Shown piece by piece: positions 6,273 through 6,438 of a stretch of 64,000 bases of DNA (position 1 is its first letter; each line of letters starts with the position of its first letter). The DNA comes from Gammaproteobacteria bacterium (GTDB lineage Bacteria > Pseudomonadota > Gammaproteobacteria > CBDDKY01), in assembly GCA_965230455.1 (NCBI GenBank), contig CBDDKY010000003.1, forward strand, positions 430,948-494,947. The letters run 5' to 3'. The position numbers were made by a program, and so were the translations under genes. A model generated the notes under the pieces. It had not been told where the DNA came from. It was given only the letters and a program-made list of their open reading frames with translations, and did no database searches.

Positions 6273-6438
6273 CTAGGGGCTGTTGACGATTCATTTTCAC
6301 GCTGCAGTTTGAATAAAACGAGTGCAAATCCGCGGTTATTTTCGTTACATAGTTCACTATGCTGCCTCAAATAACCATGGATTTGCCCGTCGTTTCTCCA
6401 AACTTCGCTTGCAAAAATGAATTGTCAACAGGCCCTAG
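6273..6438. repeat. MITE-like element, family A, copy 1 (terminal inverted repeats CTAGGGGCTGTTGACGATTCAT / ATGAATTGTCAACAGGCCCTAG)
   Basis: Perfect terminal inverted repeats of about 22 bp flank about 120 bp. The copy is nearly identical to the one at 43786-43950, and its CTA end forms the stop codon of the proQ-like gene. Confidence 0.75.

Follow-up and report, generated by a model that had tools for sequence, protein, structure and literature searches.

The 64,000-nucleotide stretch of gammaproteobacterial DNA analysed in the current study (hereafter the window) carries three copies of a MITE whose ends are shared with an IS5-family element, and our preferred reading, to which we assign a probability of roughly 85%, is that a preference for TA targets brought two of these copies into TAG stop codons that already existed, their position on gene ends being a by-product of target choice. 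According to this explanation, an IS5-type transposase of about 250 aa, supplied in trans by a parent of about 850 bp that duplicates 2 bp, would move the non-autonomous element, inserting it at TA, duplicating the TA and favouring a pyrimidine before it and a purine after it (Y-TA-R). TAA and TAG stops that follow a pyrimidine would fit this target and would offer the most dependable TA in the short spacer behind a gene. With G as its first base and C as its last, an element that enters a TAA or TAG stop at its TA would always regenerate TAG, on either strand, and the original third base of the stop would stay after the TA on the far side. Such insertions would leave the protein unchanged and would thus be harmless and persist, while those inside genes would presumably be removed by purifying selection.

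Three palindromic elements in one window

Copy 1, with a 160-bp core of subfamily A, occupies 6276..6435 (+), with terminal inverted repeats at 6276-6297 and 6414-6435. It is bordered by TA target-site duplications at 6274..6275, where a preceding C makes the flank CTA, and at 6436..6437, where the TA together with the last base of the element (C6435) forms the TAG stop of a ProQ-like gene on the minus strand. Copy 2, with a 141-bp core of subfamily B, lies at 27508..27648 (+; terminal inverted repeats 27508-27529 and 27627-27648) and retains its left TA (27506-27507), the right-side TA having mutated to CA (27649-27650). Copy 3, with a 160-bp core of subfamily A, extends over 43788..43947 (+; terminal inverted repeats 43788-43809 and 43926-43947); its left TA duplication (43786..43787) forms, with the first base of the element (G43788), the TAG stop of a 5-formyltetrahydrofolate cyclo-ligase gene, and its right TA duplication (43948..43949) is followed by G43950. 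The three copies reported by the first-pass annotation were therefore found in the sequence where it had placed them. Its wider statement, that the family is inserted exactly at gene 3' ends, holds for copies 1 and 3, which lie on stops, but not for copy 2, which touches no stop: it lies 78 bp downstream of the stop of a Na+/H+ exchanger gene, and an LTXXQ-family gene begins 80 bp beyond it.

All three cores start with GGGNCTGTTGACAATTCATTTT, have 22-bp ends and finish with the reverse complement of this start, which is degraded in copy 2 (GGCCTCAG in place of GGCCCTAG); the end sequence can also be written in the form GGGNCTGTTGAC. The two 22-bp ends of any one copy agree at 20-21 of 22 positions. 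Copies 1 and 3 share the + orientation in the window and are 85% identical, with 24 differences in 164 positions and no gaps, so that their earlier description as nearly identical was too strong. Copy 2 has only the 22-bp ends in common with them and a palindromic core of unrelated sequence, exactly as had been described. The cores of 141-160 bp contain short spurious ORFs only and no transposase. Small non-coding size, inverted repeats, TA duplication, dispersed copies and ends shared with an autonomous element are all present, and the earlier assignment to a MITE family agrees with them. Moreover, the three copies are not chance matches, as their ends are paired, their hairpins span the full length and the same TA-flanked ends recur at dozens of foreign loci.

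The window comes from one contig of 1.52 Mb, for which a collection of 5.8 billion proteins yielded no close relatives; the best other matches there were 39% identical for the ProQ-like protein and 49% for the cyclo-ligase. The contig probably represents a deep-branching lineage with a small genome, and for an affinity with Legionellales it is the MITE distribution alone that points there.

Other repeats occur in the same window. At 21801-22922 a unit of 474 bp forms a tandem array of 2.4 repeats, and a related 345-bp unit, 83-91% complementary to it and in inverted orientation, is repeated 1.9 times at 26004-26648. Between the two arrays lie genes for an MFS transporter (23455-24642) and an MqsA-type antitoxin (25266-25736). 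Both units contain the hairpin motif TTGCGAGCGGCAGCGCGGCAATCCA, which closely resembles the motif that makes up the core of MITEs with our ends in other genomes (L029, L030). A second palindromic family of about 110-130 bp, with arms that are 75-77% complementary (for example GCCAGATGTCAATTAGATTTGAATGATTTTTCCC...GGGAAAAATCATTCAAAGGTGGTTGGC), is present at 12266-12377, 33430-33560 and 60784-60914 and probably represents a further MITE family. Short hairpins of nearly perfect pairing (CCTAAATTCCGCAG...CTGCGGAATTTAGG) recur at 12186-12223, 19 bp past the stop of a Mg-chelatase-like gene, and at 15563-15604 and 40564-40605, often with an 87-bp repeat family beside them; positions 15662-15748, 26639-26725 and 51161-51185 belong to this set too. 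These repeats may be REP-like or terminator-like. Additionally, the region 12001-20000 has a G+C content of 38.5%, against 42-46% in most of the remaining window, and encodes a 760-aa protein (12403-14685) with an OTU-like cysteine protease domain, which suggests a predicted eukaryote-like effector.

Target choice and the hairpins

When one genome of each species was scanned with GGNCTGTTGACAATTCA, at least 109 loci were obtained, some of which are clearly chance matches to this 16-base pattern. Among the matches listed, 51 pairs of inward-facing ends lie 64-393 bp apart (the 393-bp pair, at L080, is doubtful, as its ends match poorly), the modal length of the paired elements is exactly 160 bp and TA stands on both flanks in 39 of the 51. 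The hosts in these matches include Legionella moravica, L. quateirensis, L. worsleiensis, L. maceachernii, L. yabuuchiae and others, together with MAGs of Legionellaceae, Legionellales and Coxiellaceae, Cardiobacteriaceae, Alkanindiges, Arenicella, Thiomicrospira and one MAG labelled Bdellovibrionales. The left flanks of the paired elements read TTA in 23 cases and CTA in 14, and the right flanks TAA in 17, TAG in 15, TAT in four and TAC in three (again among the matches listed), which shows that the preferred target is Y-TA-R. As the bases on the left and right flanks are independent of each other, the duplication is of 2 bp and not of 4 bp. The earlier proposal of insertion at CTAG or TA thus agrees with the flanks, which often lie in CTAG, and can be stated more precisely as Y-TA-R. 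Copies 1 and 2 have the CTAG context, and in copy 3 the base before the TA is A, not a pyrimidine.

Placement on stops was assessed by distance from the stop, with ORFs of at least 150 codons taken as genes; this test, in which the gene calling is crude and the sample holds chance matches, replaced a per-locus intergenic null model whose ORF selection misclassified several cases. At 686 ends of such ORFs in the sampled DNA, the stop itself provides a TA in 67.5% and a Y-TA-R in 32.4%, compared with 1.62 TA and 0.44 Y-TA-R summed over the 25 positions after the stop. Of 160 element ends among the matches listed, 34 follow a long ORF at a distance of no more than 25 bp, and 16 of these 34 are on the stop. 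The share expected on stops is 42.5% from the availability of Y-TA-R (p = 0.36) and 29% from that of TA (p = 0.02). The spacers in the window can be viewed in the same way: the 41-bp convergent spacer of copy 3 has three TA sites, two of which are stop codons, and the 62-bp spacer of copy 1 has six, two of them Y-TA-R, one of these being the stop. Target preference is therefore enough to explain the placement on stops, and special selection for insertions that preserve stops, which the first-pass annotation had suggested, is not needed, given that the share on stops fits Y-TA-R availability.

Copy 1 sits between the ProQ-like gene and the serine hydroxymethyltransferase gene (glyA), both on the same strand. 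The glyA ORF (4953-6248, -) is listed with an ATG at 6248, and the conserved N-terminus (MFDLK...) suggests that the real start may be at 6212, which would leave 62 bp to the left TA of copy 1.

Retention of the copies at gene 3' ends for a function of the RNA hairpin, as a terminator, a 3' stabiliser, an RNase III site or a site bound by an RNA chaperone of ProQ type, was also considered and appears quite unlikely. In its favour, each copy folds end to end with about 64 to 70 base pairs and z-scores of -11 to -13, the full-length hairpins reaching -78.9 kcal/mol in copy 1 (z = -11.3), -81.2 kcal/mol in copy 2 and -63.6 kcal/mol in copy 3 (z = -12.7). Twelve of the 24 differences between copies 1 and 3 (6274-6437 and 43786-43949) amount to six double changes that keep a pair, for which a rough estimate of the chance expectation is well under one, and three further differences are compatible with wobble pairing. 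The two arms of the hairpin evolve in concert, and the six paired double changes indicate that the palindrome is maintained, through selection on the element or through repair between its arms. The proximity of 34 of the 160 listed ends to the 3' ends of long ORFs could be taken in the same sense, as could the processing by RNase III reported for Correia/NEMIS transcripts (PMC2229807).

Nonetheless, several observations speak against such a function. No U-tract follows the stems, whose flanks read GGUAUUUCUG and GACUCUACAG, no terminator-like site was found in or at any of the three copies, and the suggestion that the elements act as transcription terminators finds no support here. A promoter consensus was not found in or at the copies either, and Rfam 15 covariance models gave no match at gathering score in the whole window. 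Copies 1 and 3 are co-oriented in the window while their genes lie on opposite strands, so that an orientation-specific RNA role is unlikely, and copy 2 lies away from the nearest stop and upstream of another gene. Besides, target availability accounts for the placement on stops, and compensation between the arms may equally stem from selection acting on transposition or from inter-arm repair, with no role for the host. A passive effect of a 3' hairpin on the mRNA, like the one reported for Correia elements (PMC2229807), is possible. As a more speculative extension, to which we give little credence, ends that begin with G and a TA target could together turn TAA and TAG stops into a safe harbour for these elements, perhaps their main refuge in a compact 1.5-Mb genome with very short spacers; the conserved hairpin, preserved through its paired changes, would then be a 3'-UTR structure that sets the fate of the mRNA, with RNase III as one candidate partner and, as another, the ProQ-like protein, which has a copy at its own gene.

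Stop codons at the element borders

The ProQ-like gene (6435..7034, -) encodes a ProQ/FinO-domain protein of 199 aa (Pfam PF04352, E = 2.5e-24), and its stop is the reverse complement of the CTA at 6435-6437. The overlap between this stop and copy 1 noted in the first-pass annotation is thus real, but its attribution to the final three nucleotides of a copy ending at 6438 was off by one base. The cyclo-ligase gene (43201..43788, +) encodes a full-length protein of 195 aa that covers profile positions 1-185 of 186 in Pfam PF01812, with its stop at 43786-43788. Here too a TAG is found where copy 3 was said to begin, but the TA belongs to the duplicated target and not to the element. Both stops are therefore chimeric: the TA comes from the target and the third base, G, from the element.

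Because TA is duplicated at insertion, each stop owes its TA to the host. In both stop-sharing copies of the window a G follows the TA on the far side, from which it follows that the stop is older than the insertion and that the protein is unchanged. The reconstructed empty sites read GTT GAC TAG GTA for copy 1 and AAA GCA TAG ACT for copy 3; as reconstructed, a TAG at the same codon preceded the insertion in both genes, and the element gave the third base only. Consistent with this, the C-terminus of the cyclo-ligase falls at most two residues from those of 16 homologues. Empty sites for the loci of copies 1 and 3 were not found among the closest homologues, at the 39% and 49% identity given above, and two metagenome scans, with the left flank of copy 3 and with the loop of subfamily A, returned no matches.

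A comparison of orthologous loci, proposed earlier as a check, was achieved for a full-length relative. In L. maceachernii, a gene for a POT-family transporter ends with ...AAT TGT AAC TAG, continues directly into GGTCTGTTGAC and is joined there to a complete insertion sequence that has these ends. The orthologue of this gene on a metagenome contig, 90% identical to it, encodes the same 493 aa, lacks the element and reads ...AAG TGC AAT TAA AGC, the empty site having TAA at the same codon. Apparently, the insertion used a Y-TA-R site in a pre-existing stop and changed TAA to TAG. Moreover, among the matches listed, the far side of stop-sharing elements, where it could be located, reads TAA or TAG in nine of 11 cases, with one TAT and one degraded.

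These data bear on whether the element creates the stop, that is, whether an insertion into the 3' part of a coding region truncated or re-terminated the gene with a TAG that is wholly the element's. The third base of both stops in the window is indeed the first base of the element, and real donation exists in the wider family: at L061 (6967), L083 (6111) and L087 (5146), long ORFs of 120-215 codons enter the element in another frame and end at a TGA inside CTGTTGAC, 11 nt into the element, so that the stop plus the last few codons are truly supplied by it. At L062 a TAT stands on the far side, and the insertion may there have cost the protein one residue. For the two genes of the window, however, this origin is very improbable, considering the host origin of each TA, the reconstructed TAG sites, the full-length cyclo-ligase that ends as its homologues do and the TAA in the real empty site of a relative. 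Stops that existed beforehand, which the first-pass annotation had named as the observation that would count against its proposal, are in effect what the reconstruction, the homologue C-termini and that empty site indicate, and the element can no longer be said to donate the TAG stop. What does stand from the same proposal is that insertions in stop codons preserve the stop, as TA followed by the G of the element regenerates TAG.

The reading of insertion into existing stops leads to a simple rule, in which a TA target and an end that starts with G always give TAG. The rule explains why elements are found glued to stops, predicts that some TAA stops became TAG and allows the ancestral stop to be read from the far flank. 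Additionally, an end-sequence family that is spread over Legionellales and tied to an IS5-type parent can aid repeat masking, the calling of gene ends and assembly. The value of these results lies mainly in annotation and method, with no new mechanism involved.

A probable parent insertion sequence and comparison with known small elements

The parent was sought by clustering ORFs located just inside unpaired ends, which yielded one recurrent protein. In Marinobacter sp. ELB17 (L061, 6969-7820), an 852-bp element with the ends GGGTCTGTTGACAATT and TA flanks inside CTAG encodes a 249-aa transposase whose TGA stop falls in the right end. This transposase scores above the cut-off for NF033580, the NCBIfam model of IS5 family transposases (E = 1.5e-78), and matches Pfam DUF4096 and DDE_Tnp_1. 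Homologues of the protein adjoin this end in L. yabuuchiae, L. maceachernii, Cardiobacterium hominis and several Legionellales MAGs; L047, L057 and L092, like L061, pair these ends with an IS5-family transposase. The Marinobacter element has 67% DNA identity to ISPa67, which has the ends GGGTCTGTTGCC and TA flanks. IS427-group elements measure 832-865 bp and nearly all have 2-bp repeats (PMC3281130 Table 2). From these features the parent would be a member of the IS5 family resembling the IS427 group, with the subgroup label coming from its size and 2-bp repeats. Within the 64-kb window, tblastn found no transposase of this type.

Two sets of candidates lie outside this group. Pairs of ends located 1.0-1.3 kb apart in L007, L018 and L029 were rejected as full elements, as they are separate small elements flanking ordinary genes. 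A 463-aa ORF in the low-G+C part of the window (19609-21000) has weak DDE-transposase matches, below Pfam cut-offs, and is not the IS5-type partner of the MITEs.

IS630/Tc1-mariner elements duplicate TA and favour CTAG, which corresponds to the duplication seen here and to the context of copies 1 and 2. RUP, which is linked to IS630-Spn1, also targets TA (PMC2229807), but a MITE of IS630/Tc1-mariner type is close to untenable and this parentage was rejected, since the full-length elements found with these ends all carry a DDE transposase of the IS5 family (DUF4096 and DDE_Tnp_1; NF033580) and none an IS630-type one, and since 852 bp with 2-bp repeats fits the IS427 group.

Compared with the IS5/IS427-group-like insertion sequences (ISPa67-like, including the Marinobacter element), the window elements have the same outer 16-19 nt of the ends, GGGTCTGTTGACAATT(CA), the same TA duplication and the same insertion in CTAG or Y-TA-R. 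Unlike them, they are only 141-160 bp long, have no transposase and form one long imperfect palindrome over their whole length, with cores unrelated both to the interior of the insertion sequences and to each other (subfamily A versus B).

The closest counterpart in size is a 160-bp MITE class of Legionella moravica and other Legionellaceae (e.g., L064 4511-4670), which has the ends, the TA duplication and the exact length of the 160-bp window elements. Its conserved core forms two local hairpins (CCCGCGAC-TTGT-TCGCGGG), and the window cores do not align with it. In this class (L012, L013, L021, L032, L064 and others) the hairpins lie at alignment columns 28-50 and 105-125 and show compensatory changes, for example A-U in 11 sequences versus G-C in nine. 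The recurrence of exactly 160 bp in unrelated cores, those of the window included, hints at a constraint on length or structure. No match to the cores of subfamilies A and B was present elsewhere among the matches listed from the sampled genomes, and a plasmid search with copy 1 returned no match. The viral scan for the end sequence gave 16 matches, all unpaired and only one of them preceded by TA-GGG, which is consistent with chance. As far as these searches reach, the cores appear specific to the lineage of the window, and the ends seem common across Legionellales and beyond. In the literature the end sequence was met in tac/trc promoter constructs only, and no description of this MITE family was found in the searchable literature, while according to a census of prokaryotic MITEs, 99.6% of Legionella genomes contain conserved ones.

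Correia/NEMIS elements of Neisseria and RUP of Streptococcus pneumoniae resemble the window elements in their small size, inverted-repeat ends and TA target, in their intergenic position near genes and in transcripts able to form long stem-loops (PMC2229807). Their sequences, however, are unrelated to those of the window elements, which have no promoter motif, and RUP is linked to an IS630-type transposase, whereas the window elements have the ends of an IS5-family element. QMITE1 and QMITE2 of Coxiella burnetii, which belongs to the Legionellales, extend a few bases into the 3' ends of genes and are able to change C-termini (PMC5896051), but they measure about 400 bp and about 190 bp, respectively, have different ends and are flanked by repeats of 2-4 bp (WW/SS/GAAG) or of 7-9 bp, unlike the TA of the window elements. 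Altogether, the kind of element, the TA target and the overlap of MITEs with gene ends were already known (PMC5896051, PMC2229807).
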